DNA from: Actinomycetota bacterium
GTDB taxonomy: Bacteria; Actinomycetota; Acidimicrobiia; Acidimicrobiales; SZUA-35
Reading direction: 5' to 3'
Length of the DNA stretch: 56,184 bases
Assembly: GCA_039029335.1 (NCBI GenBank)
Contig: JBCCGJ010000003.1
Location: 1-56,184 of the forward strand
Shown here one piece after another: positions 5,458 to 25,901 of this stretch. Under the pieces are notes generated by a model. The model did no database searches, was not told the DNA's origin, and worked only from the letters and a program-made list of their open reading frames with translations. Numbering within the stretch: position 1 is the stretch's first letter; the number at the start of each line of letters is the position of its first letter. Made by a program: the position numbers and the translations under genes.

Positions 5458-5587
5458 GGCCGCACCACACGGTGGACGCCGGGCCGGCGGCAATCGGCTC
5501 CGCCGGCTTCAACCGCTGCGGGCGGTCCTTGCCGTCGCCTGTCAAAAGCCCCTGCGCTCCCGGTCGACGTTGGCTACGGTTGCTGAC

Positions 5588-6247: not shown

Positions 6248-6930
6248 CGAGGATCGGCGGTCTGCTCGGCCAGGTCCTCGAACCGGAACGTGTGGCGACC
6301 AAACCGCCAGGATTCGATCCGTCGCTGGAAGGGTAGGAAGCCGGCCTGCCGACAGCCGATGTCCGCCCCGCGGTTGCCGATCTCCACGTAGGCGTCGGCG
6401 AATCGCACCGCACCGGCGCTGTTTCGCCTTGCCTCCTCGGCCATGAGATACAGCGCACGGGCCATCACCCGTTGGCCTCGAAAGTCGGGGGGCGTCCACG
6501 CACCCTCAACCAGGAGGGTGTCCGGGCCGAACGGCGGGAACAGATTGCCCCAGTGCCGTCCGACCAGGTCCGCCTGTTCGTGGGGAATGAAGAACTGGAG
6601 GTAGGCGGGTCTGCCGTCGGGGGCGACCGCCACGTAGCCACCCTTGAATCCCAACTGCCACATCGCTCGTCGACGATCGAGGTACAACCGGTTGTTGGCA
6701 TCCAGACCGGGGACGTTGAAGAGGGCGTCCGCCAGCCGATCATCGAGCGGTTCGATCCGAAGCTCGAGCACCGGATCCGGCGGGTCGGCGACCGGCTCGG
6801 CGTAGTCCCGGCGATAGCCCAGAGACTGCGTGTCGGAGCGGAACCACCGCCGCACGTTCGAACCGAGCAGCCCAACATCCCCACGTCTGGTGAGGTTGAT
6901 CATCTTCTTCGTTCGCCGAACCACCGGCAT
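6235..6930 (-). CDS. GNAT-like protein
   Basis: LLVEGAWTPPDFRGQRVMARA resembles acetyl-CoA binding motif A. ATG at 6930 preceded by GGGGAG. Confidence 0.65.
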   Translation of the reverse strand: MPVVRRTKKMINLTRRGDVGLLGSNVRRWFRSDTQSLGYRRDYAEPVADPPDPVLELRIEPLDDRLADALFNVPGLDANNRLYLDRRRAMWQLGFKGGYVAVAPDGRPAYLQFFIPHEQADLVGRHWGNLFPPFGPDTLLVEGAWTPPDFRGQRVMARALYLMAEEARRNSAGAVRFADAYVEIGNRGADIGCRQAGFLPFQRRIESWRFGRHTFRFEDLAEQTADPRYAV

Positions 6931-10595: not shown

Positions 10596-11910
10596 ACGTT
10601 GCTGTGTTCGGCCTCGGGTATGTCGGATCGGTCACCGCGGCCTGTCTGGCATCGCTCGGGCACCGGGTCATCGGCGTTGACACCAACGGAACGAAGGTCG
10701 ATCTGATCAACCAGGGTCGAAGCCCGGTTGCGGAGCCCGGCATCGGGGAGATGATCATCGCGGCGACTGACGACGGACTGCTGACGGCAACCCTTGATCC
10801 GACTGAAGCGGTTGCCGGCTCTGACCTTGCGCTGGTGTGCGTCGGCACACCAAGCAGGCCGAACGGGGACATCGACCTGGCGTATTTGGAGAACGTGAGC
10901 CGCAACATCGGCGCGGCGTTGGCCGAGTTGGACAAGCGGGACTACGTGGTGGTCGTCCGGAGCACGGTGGTTCCCGGCACCGCGGACCGTATGTCCGAGG
11001 TCATGGCCGAGGTCCTGGCCGCGAGCGGCGCCGGTGCGCTGAACCCGTCGGTCGCCGTCAACCCGGAGTTCCTCCGCGAGGGGCAGGCCGTTGAGGATTT
11101 CATGGCTCCGCCCCTGGTCATGGTGGGGGCCGACGACGGGGACGTTGCGGCCAAGATCCTGGCGCTCTACGACGGCATCGAGGCCGAGCGGCAGGTCGAG
11201 CCGACCCGGCTGACCGAGATGGTCAAGTACGCCAACAACAGCTGGCACGCGGCCAAGGTCACCTTCGCCAACGAGGTGGGCATCGTCTCCCAGGCCATGG
11301 GGGTCGATGGGGCCAAGGTGATGGAGCTGCTGTGTCGGGACACCAAGCTCAACATCTCACCGGCGTACCTCCGGCCGGGGTTTGCGTTCGGCGGCTCGTG
11401 TCTGCCGAAGGACGTCCGGGCGCTGAACTTCATGGCCAAGGACAACGACATCGCTGTGCCGATGCTGTCCAGCCTCCTCACCAGCAACGAGATTCAGGTG
11501 CAGCGGGTCATCGATCAGCTTGTGGCTCACCCCGGCAAGACCATCGGTGTCATCGGTCTGGCGTTCAAGGCGAACACCTCGACCTCCGGGAGAGCCCGCT
11601 GGTCGAGGTGGTTGAACGGATGATCGGCAAGGGCTTCACCTGTCTGGTCCATGACCGCGACATCACCCATTCGGAGCTGATCGGCGGCAACCGGGACTAC
11701 ATCGAGCGGGAGATCCCCCACCTCGACCGGCACCTGGTCGACGACGTCGAGCAGCTTGTCGCCAAAGCCGATGTGGTGGTCGTCTCCAAGGCTCCGGCCG
11801 AGGTCAGGGCGGCGTTGGCCGACCGGCCGGACGACCAGCTGCTGATCGACCTCGTCGGTCTGGAACCGGAACTCCGGACGGTCGGCCCGTACACGGGGGT
11901 GGCGTGGTGA
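10592..11910 (+). pseudogene. algD: GDP-mannose 6-dehydrogenase (AlgD-like), split by a 1-nt deletion at about 11580 (real or sequencing error)
   Basis: GLGYVG, NPEFLREG and FGGSCLPKD motifs. The conserved GLAFKANT-x-DLRESP is broken as AAC ACC TC GAC CTC CGG GAG; the C-terminal half continues in the 11332-11910 frame and ends GVAW, similar to AlgD GICW. Confidence 0.85.
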
Positions 11911-13157
11911 GCGAACAGGACACAAAACCCCACGCGCTGCTGGTGGTTGAGAACTGCTCGGTCCCGGCCGACCGCCGGGTGTGGAACCAGGCCAGGGCGG
12001 CCCGTGACGGCGGATACGACGTCACGGTCATCTCGCCCGTCGGGATCAAAGCCGGTGATGTTCAACGGCGAGAAACCAGGGACGGGATCAACATCTGTCG
12101 GTTCCCGATGCCGTTCGGCGGCCCCAGGAAGATCGACTTCCTGTTCGAATACGGATGGGCCGTCCTCGTCTGTCACTGGCTGGCCTGGCGGGTGTGGCGC
12201 CGGGAGCGCTTCGACGTGATTCACGTGGCCAATCCGCCTGACATGTTCTTCGGCCTGAAGTGGCTCTTCGGCAGGCGGGGTGCCCGCTTTGTCTTCGATC
12301 AGCACGACCTCGGGCCGGAGACGTACCAGAGCAAGTTCGAGGAGGAGCGGGAGGACGCCTTCTCCAAGCTGCTCGGCTGGCTCGAGCAACGGAGTTACCG
12401 CGCCGCCGATGCGGTGATTGTCACCAACGAGTCCTACCGGGAGCGGGCGATCGGCCGGGGCGGCATGGCCGACGAAGACGTGTTCACCGTTCGCAACAGC
12501 CCGGACCTCGACCTGTTCGCCCCCCGGCCTCCGGTGCCGGAACTCAAAGCGGGTTACTCCCACATGGTGCTGTTCGTCGGCACGATGGGCCACCAGGACG
12601 GCGTCCACATTCTTCTCGACGCTGCGGACCACGTGCGGAACACCGCAGGCCGGGATGACGTGCTGTTTGTGATGGTCGGCACCGGCGACGCGTGGGACCG
12701 GCTGCAGGAACAGCATCGGAAGCTCGATCTCGGTGACGGAGTGCGCTTCACCGGCTTCATCTCGGACGACGACATGTTGGACTACATGGCAACCGCCGAC
12801 GTCGGTGCCGCCCCGGACGTCGAGAGTCCGCTGAACAACATCTCGACGATGATCAAGACGATGGACTACATGGCCATGGGGCTGCCCGTGGTCAGCTTCG
12901 ACCTGACCGAGTCCCGGGTGTCGGCCGGTGACGCCGCACGGTACGCCCCCGAGCACTCCGGTGAGTCCTTCGGCGAGACGATCCTGGCCCTGATCGACGA
13001 CCCCGAGCTCCGGCACAGGATGGGGGAGATCGGTCAGGAGCGGATCGCCGGTCCGCTGTCGTGGAAGAACAGCGCAACCCAGCTGCTGGCGGCCTACCGT
13101 CGAGCGCGGCGCATGACGACCGCGGTGGTCCGTCCGCTGTCGGAGCAGGTCGGTTGA
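11907..13157 (+). CDS. Glycosyltransferase family 4 (WbuB-like)
   Basis: DVIHVANPPD, FDQHDLGPE and KTMDYMAMGLPVV motifs. GTGA overlap with the upstream stop. Confidence 0.9.
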   Translation: MSEQDTKPHALLVVENCSVPADRRVWNQARAARDGGYDVTVISPVGIKAGDVQRRETRDGINICRFPMPFGGPRKIDFLFEYGWAVLVCHWLAWRVWRRERFDVIHVANPPDMFFGLKWLFGRRGARFVFDQHDLGPETYQSKFEEEREDAFSKLLGWLEQRSYRAADAVIVTNESYRERAIGRGGMADEDVFTVRNSPDLDLFAPRPPVPELKAGYSHMVLFVGTMGHQDGVHILLDAADHVRNTAGRDDVLFVMVGTGDAWDRLQEQHRKLDLGDGVRFTGFISDDDMLDYMATADVGAAPDVESPLNNISTMIKTMDYMAMGLPVVSFDLTESRVSAGDAARYAPEHSGESFGETILALIDDPELRHRMGEIGQERIAGPLSWKNSATQLLAAYRRARRMTTAVVRPLSEQVG

Positions 13158-14815
13158 GAGCGATGTGCGCCGTGGCCCTCACCCTGGGAGTGCTGACCGC
13201 CGGTTGCGCCGCCGACCAGGTTGACGCGGTCGACGCGGCACCGGTTGTGACCTCGGTTGTCGAGGAGGCGTCATCGACGGGTATCGGCTCCGACGTCGGG
13301 AGCGGCCAGGCGGTCGATGGGTCGACCAAACCGGACGCCTCGGGGTCCGAGCCCGTCGAGGGTGAAGCCGACGCTGAGGTGCTGACCGAGTTCGTCGCCG
13401 ATGCACACCTCCTTGACGGCTGGTCCAGGGCGGGGACAACTGCGACCGCTGGCGAAACCCGTCTGTCGGTTGCGGTGTACGGTGCGGTGGCCGACGATGA
13501 CACCTCGGACTCCGCTGCGTTCGCCGCTGCGGTCCGCGAGGCGGCGGGAATTGACGGTGCGGTGACGATCAGCGTCGGCGAGGGGACCTACCTGCTGACC
13601 CGGACGCTGGAGTTGACCGACGGCATCACGATCAAGGGGCAGGGCCCGGACACCCGAATCGTGCTGGACCTTGGCGGGCGCGACGCCCCCGGCATACGGG
13701 CGGAGGGCCGGATCGGTGGGAGCTGGATCGCACTGGCCGACGCACCGCGCCGGGGAGACACTACGATCACGGTCGATTCCGGGCTGCAGGTCACTCCCGG
13801 TGATGTCGTTGAGCTCGAGCAGCAGAACGACGAATCGTTCTACCTCCGGGAGGATTGGCGGGTCGACTGGGGCCGGGCGGCGACCGGCGAGATGAACCGC
13901 GTCGTGTCGGTCGACGGCAGGACCGTGACCTTCGAAGCGCCGATCCTCGCCGACTACAACGCGGCGTTGACACCACGCGTCCGGATCATCGACCCCGTGC
14001 GGGAGGTCGGCCTCGAAGACCTCTCGATCTTCCGGGCGGACGACGGATACGGGTCGACCGTGCGGTTCGAGCTGGCCGCGGACGTGTGGCTCGATCGGGT
14101 GACCAGCGAACGCACCACCCGAGCCCACGTCGGGCTGAATCAGACCTACCGGTGTCGGATCTCCGGCTCGACCATCCACGACGCAAACGACTTCGGGGAC
14201 GGCGGACGGGCGTACGGGGTCAGCCTCGCCCGGCACACCACGGGCTGCCTGGTCACCAACAACACCCTCTACGACCTTCGCCACGCGATCATCCTGCAGT
14301 TGGGCGCCAGCGGCAACGTGGTCGCCTTCAACCATGCCCGCGGCTCGGCCGGCTACGAGGACCGCCAACCGAGGGCCGATCTCTCGCTCCACGGGCACCT
14401 CGCCCAGGCCAACCTGTTTGAGGGCAACATCGTCGACCGGGCGGTCTCGTCCGACTGGTGGGGCCCGTCCGGTCCGACAAACACCCTGCACCGGAACTGC
14501 GTGCGGGACCACGTCATCCTGACCAACCGGTCCGACGGTCAGGTTGTCGTCGGCAACGTCATCGGGGACGGCGGACTCCGCATCGACGATGACATCACCG
14601 ACACGGTCGCCGTCGGCAACCACCTGCTGACCGCGGCCGCCGCCAGGGACGGCGGGTTGGAACCGCCACCACCGCTGAGCGGCCCGCCGTCGCTCTGGAG
14701 CGAGAGCGCCCCGGACTTTCTGGACGGGTATGCATGGCCACCAATCGATCCCGCCCGGGATGGATCGGCCTGCAACCTCCCGGCGTCCGGCCGGTCACCA
14801 CTGGGGAACAACTGA
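13154..14815 (+). CDS. Lipoprotein with right-handed beta-helix (pectate lyase/GH28-like) domain
   Basis: Lipobox VLTAG-C, pectate-lyase-3-type motif (VAVYGAVADDDTSDSAAFAAAV...GTYLL), Asn-rich beta-helix repeats. Start at TTG 13154 (overlapping the upstream TGA) or ATG 13163. Confidence 0.75.
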   Translation: MRAMCAVALTLGVLTAGCAADQVDAVDAAPVVTSVVEEASSTGIGSDVGSGQAVDGSTKPDASGSEPVEGEADAEVLTEFVADAHLLDGWSRAGTTATAGETRLSVAVYGAVADDDTSDSAAFAAAVREAAGIDGAVTISVGEGTYLLTRTLELTDGITIKGQGPDTRIVLDLGGRDAPGIRAEGRIGGSWIALADAPRRGDTTITVDSGLQVTPGDVVELEQQNDESFYLREDWRVDWGRAATGEMNRVVSVDGRTVTFEAPILADYNAALTPRVRIIDPVREVGLEDLSIFRADDGYGSTVRFELAADVWLDRVTSERTTRAHVGLNQTYRCRISGSTIHDANDFGDGGRAYGVSLARHTTGCLVTNNTLYDLRHAIILQLGASGNVVAFNHARGSAGYEDRQPRADLSLHGHLAQANLFEGNIVDRAVSSDWWGPSGPTNTLHRNCVRDHVILTNRSDGQVVVGNVIGDGGLRIDDDITDTVAVGNHLLTAAAARDGGLEPPPPLSGPPSLWSESAPDFLDGYAWPPIDPARDGSACNLPASGRSPLGNN

Positions 14816-15912
14816 TGGCGACCGGATCAGACAACTCATCGATCAACGGAGATTCAGGAGAAACAGTGAGCAGTCTTGAGGTAGGTGTTGTCGGAACCGG
14901 CTACTGGGGTATCCGACACGTGCGGGTCCTATCGTCAGTCCCCGGTGTGTCGGTGTCGGTCGTCGATCGTGACGATGGCCGACGGCAGGCGGCGGTTGAC
15001 GCATATCCGGTGAAGCGGGCGGTGTCCGATCTCGGCGAAATCATCGACGACCTCGATGCGCTGATCATCGCAACCCCGCCGACAACCCACTACAGCCTGG
15101 CGAAGGCCGCACTGGAACGTGACATCCACGTCCTGGTCGAGAAACCGATGACCACCGACCTTGACGAGGCGGATGATCTGCTTGCCGAGGCCGCTCGTCG
15201 CAACCTGTGCCTGATGGTCGGCCACACGTTCGAGTTCAACGGGGCGGTCTGGGGCCTGTCCGAGGCCATTCGGGATCCGGCGTTCGGTCGGGTCCGGTAC
15301 ATCAACTCGGCACGGCTGAACCTTGGCCTCTATCAGCCGGACACCGACGTGCTGTGGGACCTCGCACCGCACGACATCTCGATCATCAACTACATCCTGG
15401 ATGCCCAGCCCACGTCGGTGTCCGCCTGGGGTCTGCAGCTCATGGGTGACAAGGCCGACGTTGCCTACCTGTCCATGCGCTACGACCAGCTGGACGTGAG
15501 CGCCAGCATTCACGTCAGCTGGCTCGACCCGATGAAGGTCCGCCGAACCACGGTTGTCGGTGAGAAGTCGATGGTGGTGTACGACGATGTCGCCTCGGAG
15601 GAGCGACTGCGTATTTACGACAAGGGCATCAAACAGGACGGCGGTAGCGACGACCGGGGTTCCGGCCCGCCCCTGTCCTATCGCTATGGCGACATCGTCT
15701 CCCCCTACATCGACTTCCGGGAGCCCCTGCAGGTCGAGATGAACGCCTTCATCAACTCGATCCGCTCCGAGGGCCCGGCGTCCACGAACGGCAGGCGGGG
15801 CCGGGACGTTGTTGCCGTGCTGTGCGCCGCCGAAGAGTCCCAGCGGACCGGGCAGTGGGTGGACGTTCCGCAGTTCGACGATCACCTGGCCGGCGGGGTG
15901 TCCGCAGCATGA
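14815..15912 (+). CDS. Gfo/Idh/MocA family oxidoreductase (WbpB/GnnA-like sugar 3-dehydrogenase)
   Basis: VGVVGTGYWG, HVLVEKP and LWDLAPHDIS motifs. Alternative GTG start at 14866 after AGGAG. Confidence 0.88.
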   Translation: MATGSDNSSINGDSGETVSSLEVGVVGTGYWGIRHVRVLSSVPGVSVSVVDRDDGRRQAAVDAYPVKRAVSDLGEIIDDLDALIIATPPTTHYSLAKAALERDIHVLVEKPMTTDLDEADDLLAEAARRNLCLMVGHTFEFNGAVWGLSEAIRDPAFGRVRYINSARLNLGLYQPDTDVLWDLAPHDISIINYILDAQPTSVSAWGLQLMGDKADVAYLSMRYDQLDVSASIHVSWLDPMKVRRTTVVGEKSMVVYDDVASEERLRIYDKGIKQDGGSDDRGSGPPLSYRYGDIVSPYIDFREPLQVEMNAFINSIRSEGPASTNGRRGRDVVAVLCAAEESQRTGQWVDVPQFDDHLAGGVSAA

Positions 15913-17021
15913 GCAGCCCGGTTGCCTTCCTCGATCTCGGTACCGCGCATGCCGCAATTCGGCCGGAACTCGACGCGGTGTGGCACAACGCAGTCGACCG
16001 GAATGGTTTTGTCGGCGGAGAACCGGTGGTGAAGTTCGAGGAGGACTTCGCCCGCTACACCGGTTCCCGCTTTTGCATCGGCGTCAGCAACGGCACGGAC
16101 GCCCTCGAGCTGATCCTGGCCGGGTTGGACATCGGCCCCGGCGACGAGGTGATCGTTCCGACCAACACGTTCATCGCAACGGCGGAGGCGGTGGTTCGGG
16201 CCGGTGCCACACCGGTCTTTGTCGACGTCGACCCCGTGACCGCGTTGATCACCGGCGATCATGTCCGGGCCGCGCTGACCGAGCGGACCGCAGCGGTCAT
16301 GGCCGTCCATCTGTACGGCCAGATGGTCAACATGACGGACCTGCTGGCGGTCACCGAACCCGCCGGGGTCGCCGTCATCGAGGACGCCGCGCAGGCCCAC
16401 GGCGCCACGTGGGAAGGCGCACCCGCCGGATCGCTTGGTGTCGCCGCCGGCTTCAGCTTCTACCCGGGCAAGAACCTCGGGGCGTTCGGCGACGGGGGAG
16501 CGGTGACCACCGGCGACGAGCGGCTGGCGGAACGCATCCGCTCCACGGCCAACCACGGTCGATCCAGCACGTCCAAGTACGAGCACGATCTGCTCGGTCG
16601 CAATGCTCGGCTCGACAGCCTGCAGGCGGCGATCCTGCGAATCAAGCTTGGCGAGCTCGACTCGTGGAACAAGGCCCGGCGGGAGGTCGCCGGGCTCTAC
16701 GACGTGAAGCTCGGCGGACACGTTGTGCCGTTCGCCGAGGCCGACCGGGCAGCTTCGGTCTACCACCTCTACGTCATTCGCTGTGTCGGCGTGACCCGGG
16801 ACGCGGTTGGGGAGGCCCTTGATCGGAACGGTATCGGCTGGGGAATCCACTATCCGATTCCCTGCCACCTTCAGGCGCCGTTCCGCTCGGCGGCCACACC
16901 GGTGATCGACGTGGCGGAGCAACAGGCTCCGCAGCTGCTATCCCTACCGATGCACCCGCATCTGACCGCGGACGAGATCGACCGGGTCTGCGGGGTGATC
17001 AATGAGCTTGATGGTCGCTGA
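15909..17021 (+). CDS. DegT/DnrJ/EryC1/StrS aminotransferase (WbpE/GnnB-like)
   Basis: VHLYGQ, IEDAAQAHGA and FSFYPGKNLGAFGDGG PLP-lysine motif. ATGA overlap with the upstream gene. Confidence 0.92.
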   Translation: MSSPVAFLDLGTAHAAIRPELDAVWHNAVDRNGFVGGEPVVKFEEDFARYTGSRFCIGVSNGTDALELILAGLDIGPGDEVIVPTNTFIATAEAVVRAGATPVFVDVDPVTALITGDHVRAALTERTAAVMAVHLYGQMVNMTDLLAVTEPAGVAVIEDAAQAHGATWEGAPAGSLGVAAGFSFYPGKNLGAFGDGGAVTTGDERLAERIRSTANHGRSSTSKYEHDLLGRNARLDSLQAAILRIKLGELDSWNKARREVAGLYDVKLGGHVVPFAEADRAASVYHLYVIRCVGVTRDAVGEALDRNGIGWGIHYPIPCHLQAPFRSAATPVIDVAEQQAPQLLSLPMHPHLTADEIDRVCGVINELDGR

Positions 17022-18558
17022 GCCGGCACCGTGCGGCGAGCAGGGGGACGGGTCGGGCAGGCAGCCTGGCCCGGTCTCACTGTCGGCCGAGACCGCGGGC
17101 CGTCCTCCGTGGCGGGTGGTGTTCGGGACCCTGATCCTTGGTGTTGTTGCCGGCCTCTTCGGTGCGCAGGGTTCGGTTCTTGCCGAGATGGCAAAGGAGG
17201 AGGTCTGGGTGGCCTCCGGCAGCGTCCAGGTCCGCAACGATCGGATCCAACCGGAATCGGTGAAGGTGGTGCTGGAAAGCCCGGGCTTGTGGAATCCGAT
17301 CGCCGCCCGGGAAGGCATATCTGCCAGGGACTTCCAGGAGGACTACGCGGTTGACGTGTCCGGCGGAACGCAGATCGTCCAGGCCACGTTCGAAGACACG
17401 GACCAGGATCGGGCCCGGCGCATCATCGGCGACGTTCTCGACACGTACGTCGAGAACGCCAGTGCACCGCCGGAGATCCTCCAGACCGAGCTGCTGCAGT
17501 CCCATCTGGAGTCCCTCACCGAGCTGGAGTCGTCGATCGTCGTCAGTCTGAACAACAGCGACGATCTGCCGCGACTGCAGCAGATCGACCTGCAGAACGA
17601 GCTGGTGCGGACAAGGCAGCAGATCACGACGGTCATCTTCCGCCTGGACACCCGGGCGACCGAGCTGGCGGAACGTCGCAGGATCGATCCCGAGGTGGTG
17701 ACCGCACCGTTCATCCTGGAGGAGCCGGTGACCCCCGATCCGCTCAAAGCCGCGGTCTTCGGGTTCACCGTCGGTGGCCTTGTCGCACTGGCCGCCGCAT
17801 ACCTGGTGTTCCACCGGGAGGCCCAGGCTGCCGGGGATGTCAGCCGTTCGCCGGCCGCGGGCAACGGGTCGAGCGGGTTTGCCACAACCGGTGCGACCGG
17901 TGCCGATCGCGGCCGTTCGAGCAGCCGACCGCACAACCGGGGCAACCGACTGAAGCGGACCTTGGACGTGGTGATCGCCGGGCTTGTCCTGATCGTCATC
18001 TCCCCGCTGCTGCTGGTCATCGCTCTGCTGATCAAGTTGACAAGCCGGGGGCCGGTGCTGTTCAAGCAGGACCGGGTCGGGCTCGGCGATCGGCTGTTCA
18101 CGCTCTACAAGTTCCGAACGATGCACGTGGACAACGACGACTCCGAGCATCGGGCGTTTGTCGAGGGGCAGCTGGAGAACGGCGACGCGAACCACACGGA
18201 CGACGGCAGGTTCAAACTGCAGGACTCCCGGGTGACCAGGGTCGGTGGCCCGCTGCGACGGTTGTCCCTTGACGAGCTGCCGCAACTGTTGAACGTGCTC
18301 AGAGGCGACATGTCGCTTGTCGGGCCGCGTCCGGCGTTGCCCTGGGAGGCGTCGCTGTTCGAGGCTCGCTATCGGGGCCGAACGAAGGCCGTTCCCGGCT
18401 GCACCGGACTCTGGCAGGTCTCGGGGCGCAGCCAGGTGTCGGTCAGGCGGATGTTGGAGCTCGACATGGAATACGTCCAGACCAGAAGCACGGCCAAGGA
18501 CCTGGGGATTCTGGCCCGCACCCCCTTGGTCGTGCTCAGAGGAGACGGTGCGCGATGA
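17002..18558 (+). CDS. Fusion: Wzz-like co-polymerase domain plus bacterial (priming) sugar transferase
   Basis: TM-extracellular coiled coil-Pro-rich-TM module, followed by KRTLDV, FKQDRVG, YKFRTM, SLDELPQLLNVLRGDMSLVGPRP and PGCTGLWQVSGR. Confidence 0.85.
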   Translation: MSLMVAEPAPCGEQGDGSGRQPGPVSLSAETAGRPPWRVVFGTLILGVVAGLFGAQGSVLAEMAKEEVWVASGSVQVRNDRIQPESVKVVLESPGLWNPIAAREGISARDFQEDYAVDVSGGTQIVQATFEDTDQDRARRIIGDVLDTYVENASAPPEILQTELLQSHLESLTELESSIVVSLNNSDDLPRLQQIDLQNELVRTRQQITTVIFRLDTRATELAERRRIDPEVVTAPFILEEPVTPDPLKAAVFGFTVGGLVALAAAYLVFHREAQAAGDVSRSPAAGNGSSGFATTGATGADRGRSSSRPHNRGNRLKRTLDVVIAGLVLIVISPLLLVIALLIKLTSRGPVLFKQDRVGLGDRLFTLYKFRTMHVDNDDSEHRAFVEGQLENGDANHTDDGRFKLQDSRVTRVGGPLRRLSLDELPQLLNVLRGDMSLVGPRPALPWEASLFEARYRGRTKAVPGCTGLWQVSGRSQVSVRRMLELDMEYVQTRSTAKDLGILARTPLVVLRGDGAR

Positions 18559-19247
18559 CCGCAACTGGCGGAAAGACCGGTGTTCTTCGAGACGTCAACC
18601 CGATCGTCGACGGCGTCATCGATGTCGGGGTGATCGTGGGGTACCCGTCCGAGCGGGGCAGGCCTGCGCCGCTCAACCTCGGGCCAGGGCCTCGGCTGCG
18701 GACCAACTCCGTCCTCTACGGTGCGTCGACCATCGGCCGGGGTTTCACCACCGGCCACAATGTGGTCATCCGAGAGGAGTGCGAGATCGGCGACGACGTC
18801 TCGGTCTGGACCAACAGCGTCGTCGACTACGGCTGCCGCATCGGTGACCGGGTCAAGATCCACTCCAACTGCTACGTCGCCCAGTTCACCGAAATCGGCG
18901 ACGATGCGTTCCTGGCCCCCGGTGTGAGTATCGCAAACGACCTCTACCCCGGCTCGGAGCAGTCGGCCGCCGTCATGCGGGGTCCGGTAATCGGTGCCGG
19001 GGCGCAGATCGGTGTCGGGGTGACGATTCTGCCGTACGTGGTGATCGGCGAAGGAGCGATGATCGGTTCCGGCGCGGTCGTCACCAAGGACATCCCGGCC
19101 GGAATGGTTGCGGTCGGCAATCCGGCGATCGTGACCAAGGCGGTAAAGGAACTGACCCCCATCGAGGATCGCATCGGAGATCGGCATCGGCCGGGGGAGC
19201 GAGCGATGGATGAGACGGACGGCGCGACCAGCGAGCGAAGGGTGTAA
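18555..19247 (+). CDS. Hexapeptide-repeat N-acetyltransferase (WbpD-like)
   Basis: Left-handed beta-helix repeats (IGDDV, IGDRV, IGAGAQIG, IGEGAMIGSGAVVTKDIP) and VGNPA. Confidence 0.9.
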   Translation: MTATGGKTGVLRDVNPIVDGVIDVGVIVGYPSERGRPAPLNLGPGPRLRTNSVLYGASTIGRGFTTGHNVVIREECEIGDDVSVWTNSVVDYGCRIGDRVKIHSNCYVAQFTEIGDDAFLAPGVSIANDLYPGSEQSAAVMRGPVIGAGAQIGVGVTILPYVVIGEGAMIGSGAVVTKDIPAGMVAVGNPAIVTKAVKELTPIEDRIGDRHRPGERAMDETDGATSERRV

Positions 19248-19249
19248 CT

Positions 19250-20122
19250 GTGGCTACAACAACCACCGGCCGACGGACGAGGCGGGATCGACGACACGGC
19301 AGACCGCCACACGTGGTCCGGCCGACCGGATTCACCCATTTGGACCAGGAACGGCGGGCGACCCCGAGCGGGCGCCAGCTCGTCGGGCTCTGCCTGGTCG
19401 GGCTGGTCCTGGCCGCCATCGGTGCCCAAGTCGGGGGCTTCGGTTCCTACCTCTTCGAGGAGCGCTGGCTGGCCAGAGCGGAGATCCAGTACCGGGGCAC
19501 CGCCTGGACGGAGACCCAGGATGTCGCCATCCGCAGCCGTTCGCTGCTCGGCCCGATCGCGGCGGACGTTGGCGAACCGATCAAGGAGTTCGAGGAGCGG
19601 CTCGAAGCCCGGCTGATCCCCGGAACCCAGATCCTCCGGGTCGACTACACCAGCACGGATCCGGATCTCGCCCGGACCGTCGTGTCCGAGTTGGCCAACC
19701 GGTACATCGACATAACCTCGGAGCTGACGCCGGCCGAGATCCGGGCGACCCTGCTGGACGAGATGGCCGAGATCGAGGCGGAGCTTGCGGTCGAACAGGA
19801 GAAGTTCGACCGGATCGCCACGTCGACGGACATCCGTGACCAACCGGAACAGCAGGCGACTCAGGCGGTGATCAACTCGCTCCGGGCGAGGCTGGATGAC
19901 GTCCAGTCACGGATCCTCGATCACGACATCCAGACCATCGACGAGTCGGAGAACGGCATCCCGATCGTGGTGACCGAACCCTTCGTCTTTGAGGAACAGG
20001 TCTTCCCCCGACCGAAGATCTTCGCCGCCGTCGGCGGGGCGGTCGGCCTTCTGCTGGCGGGCCTCTACGCGGGCTGGTTCTGGAACCGCCTGTCCTGGCG
20101 AGCGGAACGGCGGTCCTCCTAG
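19250..20122 (+). CDS. Wzz-like polysaccharide co-polymerase / chain-length determinant
   Basis: Two TMs flanking a coiled coil. Clearly paralogous to the N-terminal half of 17002-18558 (GTQIL vs GTQIV; VVTEPFVFEEQVFP vs VVTAPFILEEPVTP). Confidence 0.7.
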   Translation: MATTTTGRRTRRDRRHGRPPHVVRPTGFTHLDQERRATPSGRQLVGLCLVGLVLAAIGAQVGGFGSYLFEERWLARAEIQYRGTAWTETQDVAIRSRSLLGPIAADVGEPIKEFEERLEARLIPGTQILRVDYTSTDPDLARTVVSELANRYIDITSELTPAEIRATLLDEMAEIEAELAVEQEKFDRIATSTDIRDQPEQQATQAVINSLRARLDDVQSRILDHDIQTIDESENGIPIVVTEPFVFEEQVFPRPKIFAAVGGAVGLLLAGLYAGWFWNRLSWRAERRSS

Positions 20123-20123
20123 A

Positions 20124-21764
20124 TTGGCCACGGCAGCGCGTTCCGCTTCGACCGTCGTCGGTGATTCGACGACGGCCGCCACGTGGACGTTGTTGTCGCG
20201 CATCACCGGATTCGGTCGGGTACTCCTCATCGGCGCCGTTCTCGGCCCGTCGTACTTCGGCAACCTCTTTCAACTGGCCAACCAGCTGCCGTGGATCGTG
20301 TTCGAGCTGGCCATCGGCGCCCTGCTCGGTGCGCTCCTGGTCCCACCGCTCGTCCGCCACATCGGCGACGGTGACCTGGAGGCCGCCGAGCGCCTGGCCG
20401 GTCAGTTCCTCGGCTTTGTACTCGCCGTCTTCGGTGTCATCACCGTGGTAGTGATGGCCGGGTCGATCCTGATCATCCGCGGTCTTGCCGCACCGATCGC
20501 CGACGACGTGGTCCGGCAGGATTTCATCACGGCCGGCCTGCCGTTGCTGTTGCTGACCGGTCCCCAGCTGATCGGCTACGGCATTGCCGTCACCGGGCAG
20601 GCGGTCCAGCACGCCCTCGGCCACTTCGCGCTACCCGCTGCGGCGTCGATCGCCGAGAACGTCATCGTCATCCTGGCCCTGGCGGCCTTTTCCGTGCGGT
20701 TCGGTACGGGTGTCGAGGTTGGCGATGTGGGACTCGGACACATCCTCCTGCTGGGTGGCGGGTCGAGTCTCGGGGTTGCGGCCCATGCCCTCCTGCAATG
20801 GTGGGGGGTACGTCGGGCCGGACTCCGGTTGGTGCCTCGCCGAGGCTGGTCGACGCCCGAGATGCGGGCGATCATCGGCCAGGCTAGGACCTCGGCCGGT
20901 ACCGCGATCCTCAACGGGCTTCGGATCCTGATCCTGATCATCGCCTCCAACACGGTTGCCGGCGGGGTTGTCGCCTTCCAGCTGGCCATCAACCTGCTCA
21001 ACCTTCCGGTGGCGCTCGGATCGAAGCCGGTCTCCTTTGCGCTGCTGCCCCGGCTCTCGGCCGCAAAGCAGGCGGAGGACCTTCGCTCCTTCGTGGACAC
21101 CTACGCCCGGGGCGTTGGCATGGCGGCGTTCATCTCGGTGCCGGCCGCGGCCGCATCGATCGCGCTCGGCTGGTTCGCCGCCCGCGGTCTGGCGGTGGGG
21201 GAGATGGCCGGCCCGGAGGGTGAGCGCCTGGTGCTGTACGCCCTGGTCGGTATCGCCGGGGCCGTCGTCGGTGAAGGTCTTTTCCAGCTGGCCACCTCGG
21301 CCAGCTACGCCTGTTTCGATGCGGTCGCCCCGCTGCGCAGTCAGGCGCTGCGGGCCGGTCTGACCGCTGCCGGCGCGCTGTGCTGCCTCGCCCTGGTGAA
21401 CGGGCCGGTCATCGTCCTGTGGCTCGGTGTGACGATGAGTGTGGCCGACCTGATCGGCTCCGGTTACCTCCACCGGCGGATCATGACCTTGGCGACATCG
21501 GCCTACAACCTGAACCGCTCGCTCCTCCTGACAACCGCCGCGGCGATCGGAGGGTTTGTGCTCGGTGCGGGGGCGGCAGTGATCGTCCGTTCCGTCAGCG
21601 ATGGACCCCGCAACCAGCTGCTGGTGCTGGCGATGACCGGCGTGATCGCCGCAGGTTCGCTCGGCTGCTTCGCCTTTGTCCGATCCCGATTCGACGGCGA
21701 GCTGCGCGAACTGCTGGAAGAACTCCGCTCGAAGGAGTCGGCCGGCGGATCGGTGACGCCATGA
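20124..21764 (+). CDS. murJ: MurJ/MviN-like (MOP superfamily) flippase
   Basis: TLLSRITGFGR, FQLANQLP and FQLAINLLNLP motifs with about 13-14 hydrophobic helices. In-frame TTG at 20124. Confidence 0.8.
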   Translation: MATAARSASTVVGDSTTAATWTLLSRITGFGRVLLIGAVLGPSYFGNLFQLANQLPWIVFELAIGALLGALLVPPLVRHIGDGDLEAAERLAGQFLGFVLAVFGVITVVVMAGSILIIRGLAAPIADDVVRQDFITAGLPLLLLTGPQLIGYGIAVTGQAVQHALGHFALPAAASIAENVIVILALAAFSVRFGTGVEVGDVGLGHILLLGGGSSLGVAAHALLQWWGVRRAGLRLVPRRGWSTPEMRAIIGQARTSAGTAILNGLRILILIIASNTVAGGVVAFQLAINLLNLPVALGSKPVSFALLPRLSAAKQAEDLRSFVDTYARGVGMAAFISVPAAAASIALGWFAARGLAVGEMAGPEGERLVLYALVGIAGAVVGEGLFQLATSASYACFDAVAPLRSQALRAGLTAAGALCCLALVNGPVIVLWLGVTMSVADLIGSGYLHRRIMTLATSAYNLNRSLLLTTAAAIGGFVLGAGAAVIVRSVSDGPRNQLLVLAMTGVIAAGSLGCFAFVRSRFDGELRELLEELRSKESAGGSVTP

Positions 21765-23833
21765 CCACGATCGACACGCAAACGATCATCGGCGGCCGGA
21801 ACGGCAGGGACGATGCGGTCGTGACCGACATTCGCCAACACCCGGCCGCCCACCTCCGGGACCCGAGCGGCCTGGCCCCGGTTCCGGCGAGCACCATCCC
21901 GGAGTTCATCGATCACGTCCTTGGTTACTTCGTCGAGGTGCCGTCCGCCCGGCGGGTTCAGCTGCTGAAATACCTGCTGCCGGTGGCGGCGCTTGTGGCC
22001 GGTGCCCTGGTGGCCGTCATCGGGCCGGTCATCGGAACGGGATTCATCGGACTGACCATCCTGATCGGTTTGACGGCATTCCGGCCCCACTACTCCGGCT
22101 ACATCATGATCGCCGTGGCGCCTGCGATCGTCGGGTTCGGTCGGGGCCAGATCATCCCGTTGCTCCGCCCGAACGAAGCGCTGCTGTTCCTCCTGTGGGT
22201 TGTCCTCGGTGCCAGGTGGTTGCTGTACTCCCGCCGGGTCTCCGTCCGGTTGAACCGGATGGACCTTGTGGTCATCGGGCTGATCCTCACCGGCCTGGTC
22301 GTCCCGCTCCTGGTCCAGTTCGCCCGCCTCCGGCCGGTCTCGGCCGACGACATCTTTTACGCCTTTGTGCTGGTACGGCTCGGCCTGCTCTACGGCATCA
22401 TCCGCTACACGATCAGAACGCCCGGTGAGGTCCGGACCGCGATCGGACTGAGCCTGACCGTCGCAAGCGGACTCGGTGTGCTCGGTCTCATGGACTCCCT
22501 GAACCTGTTCGACACGGCGGAACGGCTCAATCCGTACTTCCCGAACGCCGGGCCCCTGACCGACGACGGTCGGGGCGCGGCGACGATCGGCAATCCCATC
22601 GGGTTCGGGGTGTACTGCGGGATGAACGCCGGTCTGGCCGTCGCGATGCTCCTCGGACGGGAGCGGCCACGCTCGCTGCTGGCCATCGCCGCGATCTGCT
22701 GCGCTGTTGGTGTGTTCGGGAGCGGCCAGATCGGTCCGTCACTGTCCTTCATCGTCGGGTTGGCCGCCCTCGCCATGTTGACCCGGTCGGTGAAGCAGAT
22801 GGTGCTGTGGTCGCTGCCGATCATCCTTGTCGGCTCGATCGTGATCGCCCCGCTCGCCCAGGAGCGGCTCGCCGGGTTCGAGGGGCCGCCGATCACCGGC
22901 GCTCAGCGGCAGGACATCGCCAACATCGAAGGCCAGGAGGAATCCCGAGCACTGTTCGATGCAAACCCGGGTTCGAGTTGGGACGTCCGCCTGTACAACC
23001 TACGCACCTTCTTCCTGCCGGAGTTCGACGACGACCTGAACCTCTGGCTCGGCGTCTCACCCCAGGCCAGGGTCACATCGCCGAACGAGGGTGAAGACTT
23101 CATCTGGATCGAATCCGGCCACCTCTGGTTGCTGTGGTCCGGCGGTGTTCCGCTGTTCATCATGTTCTTCCTTTTTGTCGGCGTCGGTCTGGTGACGTGT
23201 CGGACCGTGATGCGACGAACGCCGGGGCCGGTCGGCATCTGCGGCGCGGCGGCGTTTGCGTCGCTGATCATTCTGAGCGTGGCCACCACGTTCGACCCCC
23301 ACCTGACGTTGCGGGGGACGTCGGACATCCTGTTCCCGCTACTCGGTCTGGTCATGGTGGGGTTCAATCCGGATCGGATCCGTCCGGTTCGACCGCAGAA
23401 GCCGGTGCCGACGCTGGCGTACACCACCCCCGATCGAAACGTCTTGCGCGCGCCGACGAGCGTCAACGGGGACCGGTTGTTGCCGTCGGGCCTGAACGGA
23501 GGCGAGGCCGAAATCTACGTGGTGTCCGGTGCCTCCGGCCTCCAGCGGTTCACCGACTCTGACTCGCCGATCATGATCGGCAGGGGCAGGGACTGCCAGG
23601 TCAGGATCCCCGATGACTTCGTGTCCCGGGTGCACCTGGTCCTGGCCTGGGACGGCGAGGCGTGGCTGGTGAGCGACCACTCGAAACACGGGACCTTCAA
23701 CCGGGCGGGTGACCGCCTGGACGGAAGTGTCACCCTCGCCGACTACCTGGATCTGGTGGTCGGCGGGAAGAAGGGCAAGCAGGTTGAGGTCGGGCTGGTC
23801 TACGGGCCGAGCATCGAGGGAGAAGACGAATAA
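21761..23833 (+). CDS. Wzy/O-antigen-ligase-like polytopic membrane protein with C-terminal FHA domain
   Basis: About 11-12 TMs, RGAATIGNPIGFG loop, WIESGHLWLLWSGG ligase-like motif. C-terminal FHA signature IMIGRG...FVSRVH...DHSKHGT. ATGA overlap with the murJ-like gene. Confidence 0.78.
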   Translation: MTTIDTQTIIGGRNGRDDAVVTDIRQHPAAHLRDPSGLAPVPASTIPEFIDHVLGYFVEVPSARRVQLLKYLLPVAALVAGALVAVIGPVIGTGFIGLTILIGLTAFRPHYSGYIMIAVAPAIVGFGRGQIIPLLRPNEALLFLLWVVLGARWLLYSRRVSVRLNRMDLVVIGLILTGLVVPLLVQFARLRPVSADDIFYAFVLVRLGLLYGIIRYTIRTPGEVRTAIGLSLTVASGLGVLGLMDSLNLFDTAERLNPYFPNAGPLTDDGRGAATIGNPIGFGVYCGMNAGLAVAMLLGRERPRSLLAIAAICCAVGVFGSGQIGPSLSFIVGLAALAMLTRSVKQMVLWSLPIILVGSIVIAPLAQERLAGFEGPPITGAQRQDIANIEGQEESRALFDANPGSSWDVRLYNLRTFFLPEFDDDLNLWLGVSPQARVTSPNEGEDFIWIESGHLWLLWSGGVPLFIMFFLFVGVGLVTCRTVMRRTPGPVGICGAAAFASLIILSVATTFDPHLTLRGTSDILFPLLGLVMVGFNPDRIRPVRPQKPVPTLAYTTPDRNVLRAPTSVNGDRLLPSGLNGGEAEIYVVSGASGLQRFTDSDSPIMIGRGRDCQVRIPDDFVSRVHLVLAWDGEAWLVSDHSKHGTFNRAGDRLDGSVTLADYLDLVVGGKKGKQVEVGLVYGPSIEGEDE

Positions 23834-23875
23834 TGACAACTGCACGATGGCAACAACGGCCGGGAAGGGAACACG

Positions 23876-24820
23876 ATGGGTGAGTCCGATTTCGACGAGA
23901 CGGCGGCGTCTCGGCAGGAAATGGTCTCCGGGGAGACCGCTCGCGCCGGCCGACGGCTCGAGGAGGCACTGAACCGGGCCAGGACGGACGCCGGGCTCGG
24001 TGAGCTGCTCCAGGCCGTCGAGGGGGTGTACAACTCCCTGCGGATCGACACCGCCTACCTGGCCGAGGCGCTCACCGCCGAGCAGCGGCTCGTTGCGGAC
24101 CTCAAGCGGCGGAACCAGGCAAGCCAGGAGGCCCATGCCAAGGCCGTCACCGAGGCCACGCTGAAGGAACAGAAGGCCGACCGGCTGCACAGCCGGATCC
24201 TGGAACTTGAGTCCGCCCTTGAGGAGGCGTCCCTGCGGGCCGAGGCCGATCGGCTGATGGCACTCAGCGAGCGCGACACCGCAGTGGAGAACCTCAGCAG
24301 CAGGATCCGCTCCCTCGAGGCGGAGAACGGTCGCCTCGCCGACGAGCTGGCGGAGCTGAGACAGAAGGTGCGACCGATCGATGTGGCAACCGAACGCTAT
24401 GCCGACCCGGCCGTCACCCTGCTGGTCGACGGTGATGAGATGGTCATGCGTGGTTGGGCCGGTGTGCCGCTGGGGATCGGTCGGGCTCGGGCGATCTCCT
24501 CGCTCAGTCGGCTGGCCGAGACCAGGGATGCGCCGGTCGAGGTTGTTTTCGGAACCGAGGAAGGCCTGCAGCAGGAGGAGTTGGAGAAGGCCCCGATCCG
24601 GGTCAGGGTCATCTCGAACGGTGTCCCGATGGACACCGCACTCAACACGCTCCGGGACCAGTACGAGGAGCAGACCGAGGTGGCGGTCATCACCGACCAG
24701 CCGGACGTGTCCGGTGCGGTCGGGATGACAAGACTCATCGAGATGCTGGGGATGCCAACGTCAACCGGTGGCGCCGCTGGCGGCGATGGCCGGGTGACAT
24801 CGATCGCCATCAACGGCTGA
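23876..24820 (+). CDS. Coiled-coil protein with degenerate NYN (YacP/Rae1-like) domain
   Basis: Long heptad-rich region, then LLVDGDEM...RARAISSLSRLA...VEVVFG...IRVRVIS...VAVITD, which follows the actinobacterial NYN layout with altered catalytic motifs. Confidence 0.55.
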   Translation: MGESDFDETAASRQEMVSGETARAGRRLEEALNRARTDAGLGELLQAVEGVYNSLRIDTAYLAEALTAEQRLVADLKRRNQASQEAHAKAVTEATLKEQKADRLHSRILELESALEEASLRAEADRLMALSERDTAVENLSSRIRSLEAENGRLADELAELRQKVRPIDVATERYADPAVTLLVDGDEMVMRGWAGVPLGIGRARAISSLSRLAETRDAPVEVVFGTEEGLQQEELEKAPIRVRVISNGVPMDTALNTLRDQYEEQTEVAVITDQPDVSGAVGMTRLIEMLGMPTSTGGAAGGDGRVTSIAING

Positions 24821-24866
24821 GTTGTTGGTTGCCGGCGGTGAACGGTGGAAATTAGTGGTGGAGCGA

Positions 24867-25901
24867 ATGTCGCAGAGGATTGACGTCACGGCGTCGCACG
24901 AGTGGGATGAGGTGGTCGCCGGGTCGGACGGCGAGCTGTTCCTTTCCCGGCGGTGGATCGGCGTGCTCGAAGAGGTCTTTGATCTCAACATGGAGGCGAT
25001 CATCCAGCGGGATGCCGGTGGGCGGATCGTCGGCGCGCTGCCGTTCTGCTGTGTGGACGACGTCCGGAGCTCACGGGTGGCGGTGCTTCCGTTCTCCGAC
25101 TTCGTGACCCCGGTGCTGCATGCTGATGCGGACTGGGACCACGTGATCGATCCCATCCTGCAGCTCGGCAGACCACTGGTGTTCCAGACGACCGGCGGCT
25201 CCCCGGCCGCCACCGACGAACGGTTCGTCCAGGACGGTGAGTCGGTCAGGCACTCCGTCGCGCTCGACGCCGACCTGGACGAGCTCATGAGCCGCTTCTC
25301 CCAGCACCATCGCAGGCTTGTCCGCAAGTCGGCCAAGCACGGTCTCCGGTTCCGCCTTGCCGAGTCGACCGACGAACTGCGGGCGTTCTACGAACTCCAT
25401 CTCGGCGTCAGGAAACACAAGTACGGCATGCTGGCTCAGCCGTATCGTCTCTTCGAGGCACTGTGGGAGGAGTTCCTCACCAAGGGTGCCGGCGGCCTTG
25501 TGCTCGGGTTCGACGGTTCGATGGTGGTCGGCGGTTGCCTGCTCCTCGAGGCGGGGGACACGCTCTACTACAAGTACGCGGCGTCCCACCCGGACTACCG
25601 CGCCCTCGGGGTCAGCCACGGCGCAACGGTGCAGGCGATGGAGCTTGGCCTGCAGCGGGGCCTGGCCAAGCTGGACCTCGGCAGGAGCGACCTCGACCAA
25701 CCGGGTCTGGTGGACTTCAAACGCCGCTTCGGGGCGACGGCGACCGCGCTCCACCGGTACCGGTCGAAGGACCAGCTGTTCCAGGAGGTCTCGGAGATGG
25801 ACCGACTCCTCACCGACCTCACCGGGTTGATGACCCAGTCGACTGTGCCGGACCACATCACCGAACGGGCGGGCGACCGCCTCTACCGCCTCTTCGCGTG
25901 A
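24867..25901 (+). CDS. GNAT family acyltransferase (CelD/BcsL or FemAB-like)
   Basis: LPFSD, RRLVRKSAKHGL, YYKYAAS and LDLGRSDLDQPGLVDFKRRFG motifs. Confidence 0.82.
   Translation: MSQRIDVTASHEWDEVVAGSDGELFLSRRWIGVLEEVFDLNMEAIIQRDAGGRIVGALPFCCVDDVRSSRVAVLPFSDFVTPVLHADADWDHVIDPILQLGRPLVFQTTGGSPAATDERFVQDGESVRHSVALDADLDELMSRFSQHHRRLVRKSAKHGLRFRLAESTDELRAFYELHLGVRKHKYGMLAQPYRLFEALWEEFLTKGAGGLVLGFDGSMVVGGCLLLEAGDTLYYKYAASHPDYRALGVSHGATVQAMELGLQRGLAKLDLGRSDLDQPGLVDFKRRFGATATALHRYRSKDQLFQEVSEMDRLLTDLTGLMTQSTVPDHITERAGDRLYRLFA

Follow-up and report, generated by a model that had tools for sequence, protein, structure and literature searches.

A WaaL/Wzy-fold membrane protein with a C-terminal cytoplasmic FHA domain in a surface-glycan gene cluster of uncultured marine Acidimicrobiales-like bacteria

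Introduction

This report concerns a 690-residue membrane protein of an uncultured bacterium of the Actinomycetota (Acidimicrobiales; assembly GCA_039029335.1, contig JBCCGJ010000003.1), in which a body of WaaL/Wzy-type fold is continued, through a flexible linker, into an FHA domain, a type of module that reads phosphothreonine (pThr). Its gene occupies positions 21761-23833 of the forward strand of the window, a term used here for the whole stretch of DNA analysed (56,184 nucleotides), which is itself an entire contig (C3) of a 6.0-Mb metagenome bin (520 contigs, 89% complete, 5% contamination) and has a GC content of 63-70% throughout. The FHA domain faces the cytoplasm, keeps the conserved residues of the pThr pocket, and was gained only once; the fusion is rare, and its gene is translationally linked to that of a flippase.

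Our preferred explanation starts from the prediction that the protein is a transferase of lipid-linked glycans, most likely a Wzy-type polymerase. It would serve a conserved actinobacterial pathway of the Wzx/Wzy type, whose polymer would contain a 2,3-diacetamido sugar. A sub-clade would have gained, once, the C-terminal cytoplasmic FHA domain on its flexible linker and, because this domain keeps the phosphate-binding set of Arg, Ser and His, its most likely docking site is a phosphothreonine produced by one of the genome's roughly 23 Hanks-type kinases. Such docking would couple kinase signalling to the activity of the polymerase, to its assembly with the flippase and the co-polymerase, or to its location. 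We infer the binding of pThr, the identity of ligand and kinase, the role as polymerase and the effect on polymerisation from the evidence laid out below; control of polymerisation by a Ser/Thr kinase is plausible, and the explanation as a whole is, in our judgement, moderately probable.

Throughout, G000 denotes the genome to which the window belongs, whereas relatives carry a P when they were found by protein search, a G when they are genomes of the same family, and an L when they are loci.

Architecture of the protein

The gene is a single open reading frame (ORF) that ends with a stop codon at 23833. Its start codon, the ATG at 21761, overlaps the stop codon of the upstream MurJ-family gene (ATGA), in agreement with the direct coupling to a MurJ-like flippase noticed in a preliminary description of this DNA made from its sequence. 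The N-terminus that results from this start is consistent with those of the relatives. The product consists of three parts, namely a 14-helix membrane body, a disordered linker and an FHA domain, and its segments are distributed as follows:

21761..21946 (+), amino acids 1-62: cytoplasmic N-tail, a disordered extension (MTTIDTQT...) and then a conserved amphipathic helix at amino acids 46-57
21947..23380 (+), amino acids 63-540: 14-helix membrane body of predicted WaaL/Wzy fold (GT-C, SEDS-like), from the AlphaFold2 model and the WaaL match
23381..23509 (+), amino acids 541-583: cytoplasmic linker, a basic juxtamembrane stretch with a conserved motif and then a variable low-complexity segment
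23510..23797 (+), amino acids 584-679: FHA domain, from Pfam PF00498, AlphaFold2 and Foldseek

In the AlphaFold2 model the N-tail has a predicted local distance difference test (pLDDT) score below 50 for amino acids 1-25 and is helical at amino acids 46-57. The start MTTID is common to the window protein and its relatives P0004-P0006, P0003 begins with M-IDTQ, and the tail of G051, a genome of the same genus, differs and begins with MTAVGVTS; in the relatives that do not bear an FHA domain the tail is absent or shorter. The linker also has a pLDDT below 50 and contains no hydrophobic segment. Its juxtamembrane motif, (K/R)P(V/L)P(T/S)(L/M)(V/A)(Y/M), is kept across an alignment of the six FHA-bearing forms (the window protein, P0003-P0006 and G051), and the distance from this motif to the core of the FHA domain ranges among them from about 35 to about 175 amino acids.

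The FHA domain

PF00498, the only Pfam domain found in the protein, matches amino acids 605-646 with an E-value of 8.1e-10 (39.4 bits, for a cut-off of 20.7), and it is also found above its cut-off in P0004-P0006 and G051. The best NCBIfam match is the FhaB/FipA model, far under its own cut-off. Among the sequences of solved structures, the C-terminal 137 amino acids match the FHA domain of Mycobacterium tuberculosis FhaA (2LC1, 3PO8 and 3OUN; E about 4e-8), which is the closest one by sequence, as well as Rv1747. A HMMER search of 1.84 billion representative proteins with the FHA part returned 1200 matches at E<=0.001.

The structural model leads to the same assignment. Amino acids 575-690, modelled by AlphaFold2 from a 54-row alignment, form a beta-sandwich with nine strands of at least three residues and a mean pLDDT of 89.1. 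Foldseek found 91 matches to this model in the Protein Data Bank (PDB) at E<=0.001, and all among the matches listed are FHA domains. The best one is FHA-1 of Rv1747 (6CCD; E 5.7e-8, TM-score 0.88, root-mean-square deviation 1.8 Å), followed by the domains of FhaA, EmbR, GarA, OdhI and DgcB.

The preliminary description had read a C-terminal FHA domain with the residues GR, SRxH, and HGT in the place of NGT, and all of them are found, at G607-R608, at S622-R623-x-H625 and within the loop S641-K642-H643-G644-T645, respectively. G607, R608, S622, H625 and S641-K642-H643 are invariant in six of the six FHA-bearing forms, even though the FHA domain of G051 is only about 40% identical, and G607, R608, S622 and H625 are also the majority residues when 358 FHA domains drawn from the matches are aligned. 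With both a profile match and a structure match present, this part of the protein is a genuine FHA domain with conserved phosphate-binding residues.

The membrane body and the side of the membrane

Amino acids 60-540, approximately, were modelled confidently by AlphaFold2 from 78 homologues, with most 10-residue blocks having a pLDDT of 85-98. At E<=0.001, Foldseek matches this body to the O-antigen ligase WaaL alone (7TPG_B, E 1.3e-4). VIA, a search independent of Foldseek, aligns WaaL 7TPJ_B with a Z score of 21.6 over 363 of its 403 residues, placing positions 103-537 of the model on positions 5-407 of the chain. The next fold matches are the SEDS polymerases FtsW and RodA (Z 12-14), followed by ArnT (6.4). 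The nearest clusters of the ESM Atlas are named 'O-antigen ligase family' (score 0.92), and 96-99% of their members have Wzy_C. At the level of sequence, a profile of the body family gives no match among the PDB sequences at E<=10, and the relative P0045 (45% identity) reaches Wzy_C at E 2.2e-5 with 24.7 bits, under the cut-off of 31.7. The Wzy/WaaL-like body of the preliminary description therefore stands in part: the WaaL fold match upholds it and membership of Pfam Wzy_C does not, so that the likeness is one of fold and of context only. On this basis, the protein is predicted to function like the lipid-linked glycan transferases of WaaL/Wzy/SEDS fold.

Three independent lines place the FHA domain in the cytoplasm, and not on the extracellular side. 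The first one is the superposition itself, since the core of the body lies end to end on the 12-helix chain of WaaL, an enzyme with both termini in the cytoplasm, while an additional pair of helices at the N-terminus folds as a hairpin and the last helix of the body has no hydrophobic segment after it. The second one is the distribution of charges under the WaaL-based topology, with 21 Lys or Arg residues in 117 'inside' residues versus 12 in 186 'outside' residues, the latter also including 25 Asp or Glu. The third one comes from fusions in relatives: in P0047, P0050 and P0097 the C-terminus of the body runs straight into a cytoplasmic Bac_transf phosphoglycosyl-transferase domain, and in P0101 a basic stretch and then one more hydrophobic helix come before an exported GH5 domain. 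On the outer side, the body has a loop of 79 residues (amino acids 374-452), acidic (15 Asp or Glu versus 5 Lys or Arg) and situated before the last three helices.

Rarity and single origin of the fusion

A word-indexed search of 5.8 billion proteins yielded 106 relatives at E<=0.001, four of which bear an FHA domain: P0003 (99% identity), P0004 (78%), P0005 (75%) and P0006 (73%). P0003 is a variant almost identical to the window protein, which belongs to its cluster. Other fusions are found in the body family, with an N-terminal MurJ in 17 of the 106 (P0023, P0025 and P0046 among them), a C-terminal Bac_transf in 11, and GH5 in one (P0101). As an observation in its own right, these MurJ, Bac_transf and GH5 fusions are natural joins of consecutive steps of a pathway.

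Among 88 genomes of the same family, the body and the FHA domain share a frame only in G000 and G051, which belong to the same genus. In G051 the copy lies in two pieces at the ends of two contigs, with 76-78% identity in the body, an acidic linker that is about 140 amino acids longer, and an FHA domain (about 40% identity) that keeps GR, SRxH and SKH; as in the window, the coiled-coil and FemAB-like genes come after it. The neighbours of the fusion are the same in P0003-P0006 and G051. The orthologues of the family at 52-66% identity stop at about query residue 535-570, and in the best 80 loci, drawn from 185,579 species genomes, no match extends past query residue 574. A split form was also looked for, as a separate FHA gene near the FHA-less orthologues, and gave no matches in the six-frame ORFs within 8 kb on either side of these 80 loci with a local FHA hidden Markov model (HMM). 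Searching by region, with the FHA part and at similar lengths, returned only the four fused relatives already mentioned. Scans of metagenome contigs gave 598 pattern matches and no confirmed relatives with the FHA segment, and three relatives (55-56% identity), none of them reaching the FHA domain, with the alignment of the fused forms. The preliminary description had not recognised the covalent fusion as a familiar architecture, and with 4 of 106 relatives, 2 of 88 family genomes and none of 80 loci carrying the FHA domain, it is indeed rare.

In a quick maximum-likelihood tree of the body (IQ-TREE), all six rows with an FHA domain fall into a single clade with an SH-aLRT support of 100, so that one change accounts for them. 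The tree has 48 rows, namely the window protein, P0003-P0045, the N-terminal fragment of G051, and P0049, P0055 and P0056 as distant rows, with the rest of P0046-P0108 left out. The fusion is thus real and inherited, with a single origin in a sub-clade of genus rank among marine Acidimicrobiales-like bacteria.

Single Logan contigs from two runs span 23139-24100 and 23264-24100, that is, the last helices of the body, the linker, the FHA domain and the beginning of the gene that follows. The runs holding the stretch are three DNA runs of one marine-metagenome study, with no RNA run listed, and this bridging is not counted as independent support because the best run may be the source sample. In one of the runs (X1), short contigs of 33-61 nucleotides overlap between two long contigs at window positions 23230-23293; this is a strain-variant bubble in the last helices of the body and not a break in the fusion.

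The glycan cluster

The gene belongs to a cluster of glycan genes on the forward strand, with the following neighbours:

8706..19247 (+): upstream part of the glycan cluster, from Pfam and NCBIfam matches
17002-18558 (+): initiating phosphoglycosyl transferase (Bac_transf), within the former
19250..20122 (+): candidate Wzz-like polysaccharide co-polymerase (PCP), 290 amino acids, from a weak EpsF match
20124..21764 (+): flippase paralogue of the MurJ/MOP family, in the role of Wzx (PF03023, E 1.7e-30)
23876..24820 (+): coiled-coil protein, 314 amino acids, with a C-terminal alpha/beta domain and weak coiled-coil matches only in Pfam and NCBIfam
24822..25901 (+): FemAB/GNAT-like acyl- or aminoacyl-transferase (PF13480, E 1.2e-14; PF02388, E 1.5e-8)

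The upstream part encodes, in this order, an AsnB-like amidotransferase, a nucleotide-sugar dehydrogenase, a glycosyltransferase of family 4 (GT4), a beta-helix protein, a GFO oxidoreductase, a DegT aminotransferase, the Bac_transf enzyme and a hexapeptide acetyltransferase. The best NCBIfam match of the GFO oxidoreductase is UDP-GlcNAc 3-dehydrogenase (E 1.9e-47, under the cut-off) and, by analogy, the trio of oxidoreductase, aminotransferase and acetyltransferase suggests a 2,3-diacetamido sugar.

The PCP-like protein has a basic, Thr-rich N-tail, a transmembrane segment, a coiled-coil ectodomain and a C-terminal transmembrane segment. Its match to the chain-length determinant EpsF in NCBIfam (E 5.9e-5) is far under the cut-off, which makes the assignment weak; the gene stands directly 5' of the flippase gene in about 30 fetched loci. 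A predicted complex between this protein and amino acids 60-545 of the body reached a score of 0.30 (mark 0.32).

The flippase ORF, as listed, opens at 19989. From the sequence and the 545-residue orthologue of G051, the gene probably starts at the TTG at 20124, one base past the stop codon of the PCP-like gene. PF03023 covers amino acids 83-526 of the 591-residue ORF and is its only domain, so that no extra domain of the pseudokinase type is present, and TIGR01695 gives 117 bits for a cut-off of 235. Because it is the weakest scorer of the three MurJ-family genes of the genome, the gene appears to encode a pathway-specific flippase and not a housekeeping one. Elsewhere in G000, at 30976-33857 of contig C21, a MurJ-family gene is again paired with a paralogue of the WaaL-fold body (29-40% identity), without an FHA domain.

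Downstream, the coiled-coil gene is kept 3' of the body gene, both in G051 (60% identity) and in FHA-less relatives (23-32%), and always follows it in close relatives. Its product has a long coiled coil, and the C-terminal alpha/beta part, which belongs to no recognised family, recalls NYN/PIN-like nuclease folds by eye and may be related to them. The FemAB-like gene, syntenic in relatives, is the last one of the cluster on this strand, and its product matches TIGR03019 with an E-value of 1e-17, under the cut-off.

The order formed by the GFO oxidoreductase, DegT, phosphoglycosyl transferase, hexapeptide acetyltransferase, PCP-like protein (not in all cases), flippase and body recurs in most of the best 80 loci, which come from many Actinomycetota (metagenome-assembled genomes of Acidimicrobiales, as well as Paractinoplanes, Nocardioides and Kribbella) and from a few other phyla. 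This conserved order (window positions 14734-23400; loci L001-L080) looks like an uncharacterised and widespread surface-glycan pathway.

Three further observations concern the surroundings of the gene. The best NCBIfam matches of the genes at 8706-10595, 17002-18558, 19250-20122 and 24822-25901 are XrtA/PEP-CTERM exopolysaccharide families, all of them under cut-off (amidotransferase TIGR03108, exopolysaccharide sugar transferase TIGR03025, EpsF TIGR03017 and FemAB TIGR03019, respectively), and the host is an actinobacterium. Just 5' of the cluster, the ORF at 5339-6247 has an OLD-like TOPRIM domain (E 4.4e-8) and overlaps the end of an ORF for a PhyH-family dioxygenase. Finally, the ORF at 38932-40575, on the reverse strand, encodes 547 amino acids with a cyclic-nucleotide-binding domain and a pyridine-nucleotide-disulphide oxidoreductase.

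Kinases, source of the FHA domain and candidate ligands

The genome itself provides the elements of Ser/Thr signalling, with 24 Pkinase matches (23 of them over the cut-off), 15 FHA matches and three PP2C matches. On the reverse strand of contig C105, two adjoining genes (together 2059-6338; locus L095) encode an FHA-FHA-trypsin-like protease of 652 amino acids and a 715-residue Ser/Thr kinase with an fn3 domain. The first FHA domain of this protease is the nearest one to that of the fused protein in its own genome (40% identity) and reads ...STHGTF, with His for Asn. When 41 of the 149 other listed FHA matches were scanned with Pfam, 21 were found to have this FHA-FHA-Trypsin_2 arrangement and none had a glycan-transferase body. 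From its sequence, the FHA domain of the fusion was probably copied from the first FHA domain of this family of FHA-FHA-proteases encoded beside a Ser/Thr kinase.

The candidate pThr ligands for this domain are the kinase itself, the N-tail of the fused protein (MTTIDTQT), its juxtamembrane P-V-P-T, the Thr-rich N-tail of the PCP-like protein and the C-tail of the flippase. The MTTID N-tail was also considered as a universal ligand of these FHA domains, and this idea was weakened by the different start of G051 and by the starts of FHA-less relatives, which are Thr-rich too.

Weighing the explanations

Several observations weigh against the proposed pThr-reading polymerase. Regarding the body, no Pfam family, Wzy_C (PF04932) included, is found for amino acids 1-546 even at E<=10, and its strong structural neighbour is the ligase WaaL alone, not a polymerase. 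Regarding the FHA domain, the PF00498 match spans only positions 2-45 of the 67 of the profile, the canonical Asn of the (S/T)-x-N-G loop is replaced by His643, and we know of none that has been tested for pThr binding among the 60 His-bearing domains of the alignment of 358. Regarding the signal, scanning the ORFs and mapping the genome matches revealed no kinase, phosphatase or other FHA gene in the 56-kb window, and the candidate acceptor sites are unevenly conserved, as MTTID is missing in G051, the juxtamembrane Thr is a Ser in P0005, and Thr-rich N-tails or starts are also present in FHA-less relatives. Lastly, the FHA domain is an accessory and not a requirement, because all the orthologues at 52-66% identity lack it.

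The first alternative affects the body, which could be a WaaL/PglL-like ligase moving a finished, lipid-carried glycan to an acceptor, for example protein, wall polymer or lipid, with the FHA domain controlling the attachment. The difference between WaaL, by far its best structural match (Z 21.6), and the SEDS polymerases (12-14), the name of its ESM Atlas neighbours, and the presence of only one GT4 besides the initiating transferase in the cluster all speak for such a role. However, no other Wzy-like gene, which would be needed for polymerisation, was seen among the cluster genes scanned, a Wzz-like gene with two transmembrane segments lies two genes upstream, and no Wzy polymerase structure is present among the matches listed, so the WaaL match may reflect what has been solved. 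The context is that of a Wzy-type polymerase gene, with an initiating transferase, a MOP-family flippase and a PCP-like gene in an order kept in relatives. The Wzz-like neighbour and the lack of a second Wzy-like gene in the cluster are the reasons to favour a polymerase; the ligase also has to be considered, as a possible though less than probable role.

The second alternative is a self-contained switch, in which the FHA domain would bind pThr in the tails of the protein itself (MTTIDTQT, PVPT or Thr residues of the linker), in cis or between copies, leading to auto-inhibition or clustering. Behaviour of this kind has been described for GarA/OdhI, DgcB of Bdellovibrio and Rv1747. The fold neighbours of the domain do include FHA-1 of Rv1747 (6ccd) and the FHA domain of DgcB in complex with the phosphorylated peptide of its own N-terminus (6hc1), the N-tail is disordered, rich in Thr and longer than in FHA-less relatives in four of the five FHA-bearing lineages, and the P-V-P-T motif is found in the fused forms only. 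The same gaps in G051 and P0005 described above count here against it, and it would be a special case of our preferred explanation rather than a contradiction of it. Taken as the actual mechanism, we regard it as rather unlikely.

According to the third alternative, the FHA domain would be a phospho-independent module for protein-protein interaction that tethers a partner with no kinase input, as some FHA-like domains of secretion systems do. The His in the place of Asn would fit this idea, and so would a secondary Pfam match to Yop-YscD_cpl (E 8.6e-5, under the cut-off) and the absence of a kinase gene nearby. Nevertheless, the Arg and Ser that contact phosphate and the structural His do not vary across about 60% sequence divergence, both sequence and fold point to pThr-binding FHA domains of mycobacteria as the closest solved relatives, and the nearest paralogue is encoded beside a kinase. 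As for the His itself, the Asn column of the 358 aligned domains contains Asn in 186 of them, His in 60, Lys in 23 and Arg in 21 and, because the nearest FHA relatives also carry His, the replacement looks like a trait of a subfamily and not like decay. We give little credence to a domain that ignores phosphate.

That the fusion could be an artefact of assembly or gene calling joining two genes or organisms, to which the fragmented bin of 520 contigs with 5% contamination and the small variant bubble might point, is scarcely credible, given that the frame is uninterrupted, the linker has no stop or start context, single contigs cover the junction, and the same architecture recurs in independent assemblies, in P0003-P0006 on other contigs and in G051, another species of the genus.

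Relation to known systems

Among the closest systems is the pair formed by FhaA and MviN of M. tuberculosis (Rv0020c and Rv3910; 3OUN, 3PO8, 2LC1), where a flippase of the MurJ family is also linked to a pThr reader within an actinobacterial envelope-glycan pathway. The ligand of FhaA is a pThr on an extra intracellular domain of MviN, of the pseudokinase type. FhaA is a separate soluble protein, whereas the FHA domain described here is fused to a Wzy/WaaL-like enzyme, and that pair acts on peptidoglycan while this one would act on a secondary polysaccharide with a cluster-specific MurJ paralogue. Moreover, the extra domain with the pThr is absent from the MurJ-like protein (PF03023 only; 545 residues in the G051 orthologue). 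The analogy with FhaA and MviN/MurJ drawn in the preliminary description is consequently incomplete: the reader is closest by sequence to that of FhaA, but the flippase lacks the extra domain and is not the best-scoring of the three MurJ paralogues.

Rv1747, an ABC exporter regulated by the kinase PknF, shares with the fused protein a covalent FHA on a polytopic envelope membrane protein by means of a flexible linker. Its positive regulation by Ser/Thr phosphorylation has been reported (PMC3138270). In that case there are two N-terminal FHA domains, an ABC transporter and a kinase gene in the operon, in contrast to the single C-terminal FHA domain and the GT-C-type transferase found here, where none of the 24 Pkinase matches of the genome is on the contig of the gene.

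WaaL of Cupriavidus metallidurans (7TPG/7TPJ) has in common with the body the 12-helix core and a large loop that faces outward ahead of the last three helices. It differs from the fused protein, to which it is 11-12% identical, in the two extra N-terminal helices, the cytoplasmic FHA domain and the lack of a Wzy_C match in the latter. Because the host belongs to the Actinomycetota, a lipid A-core acceptor would not be expected.

Lastly, the Wzc/CpsCD systems also comprise an initiating transferase, a flippase, a Wzy-like enzyme and a PCP-like protein, and have a phosphorylation-linked module on the assembly machine. There, the module is a Tyr kinase on the co-polymerase; here, it would be a pThr reader on the putative polymerase, and no bacterial tyrosine kinase domain was found among the cluster genes with Pfam and NCBIfam. 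A bolder idea, which we put forward tentatively and consider improbable as it stands, is that the FHA domain replaces the tyrosine-kinase logic of Wzc/CpsD with a Hanks-kinase one: a kinase would phosphorylate a cytoplasmic Thr-rich tail, the FHA domain would clamp it, and the complex would assemble or dissolve. The candidate kinase would be the fn3-bearing one of contig C105, and the tail could be on the co-polymerase, the flippase or the polymerase itself. If this were true, the output or chain length of the polymer would be switched by an extracellular signal, and this would be the first phospho-reader residing in a polymerase in polysaccharide assembly.

A search of the full-text literature, with domain-architecture databases outside its reach, found no description of an FHA domain fused to Wzy, WaaL or O-antigen polymerase, and the Lipocone preprint mentions VanZ-FHA fusions. 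There may be independent FHA fusions in other Wzy families. The principle of FHA readers that link kinases to envelope membrane proteins is known from FhaA-MviN and Rv1747; an FHA domain on an enzyme of WaaL/Wzy fold appears to be a new variation on this principle.

Concluding remarks

The scope of the finding is narrow: the fusion occurs in no more than a few genomes of uncultured marine bacteria, its two domains belong to known kinds, and the regulation is a proposal. Its interest lies in that, to our knowledge, the way in which Wzy-type polymerases are switched or tuned is poorly understood outside the co-polymerase systems with tyrosine kinases. In Actinomycetota, the Ser/Thr kinases and FHA proteins we know of control peptidoglycan and glycolipid export always through readers that are separate or fused to a transporter. 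FHA-less orthologues at 52-66% identity exist as natural controls. A phospho-reader placed inside the polymerase would be a minimal and testable case of such control, one in which the ligand must be a cytoplasmic pThr near the machine.

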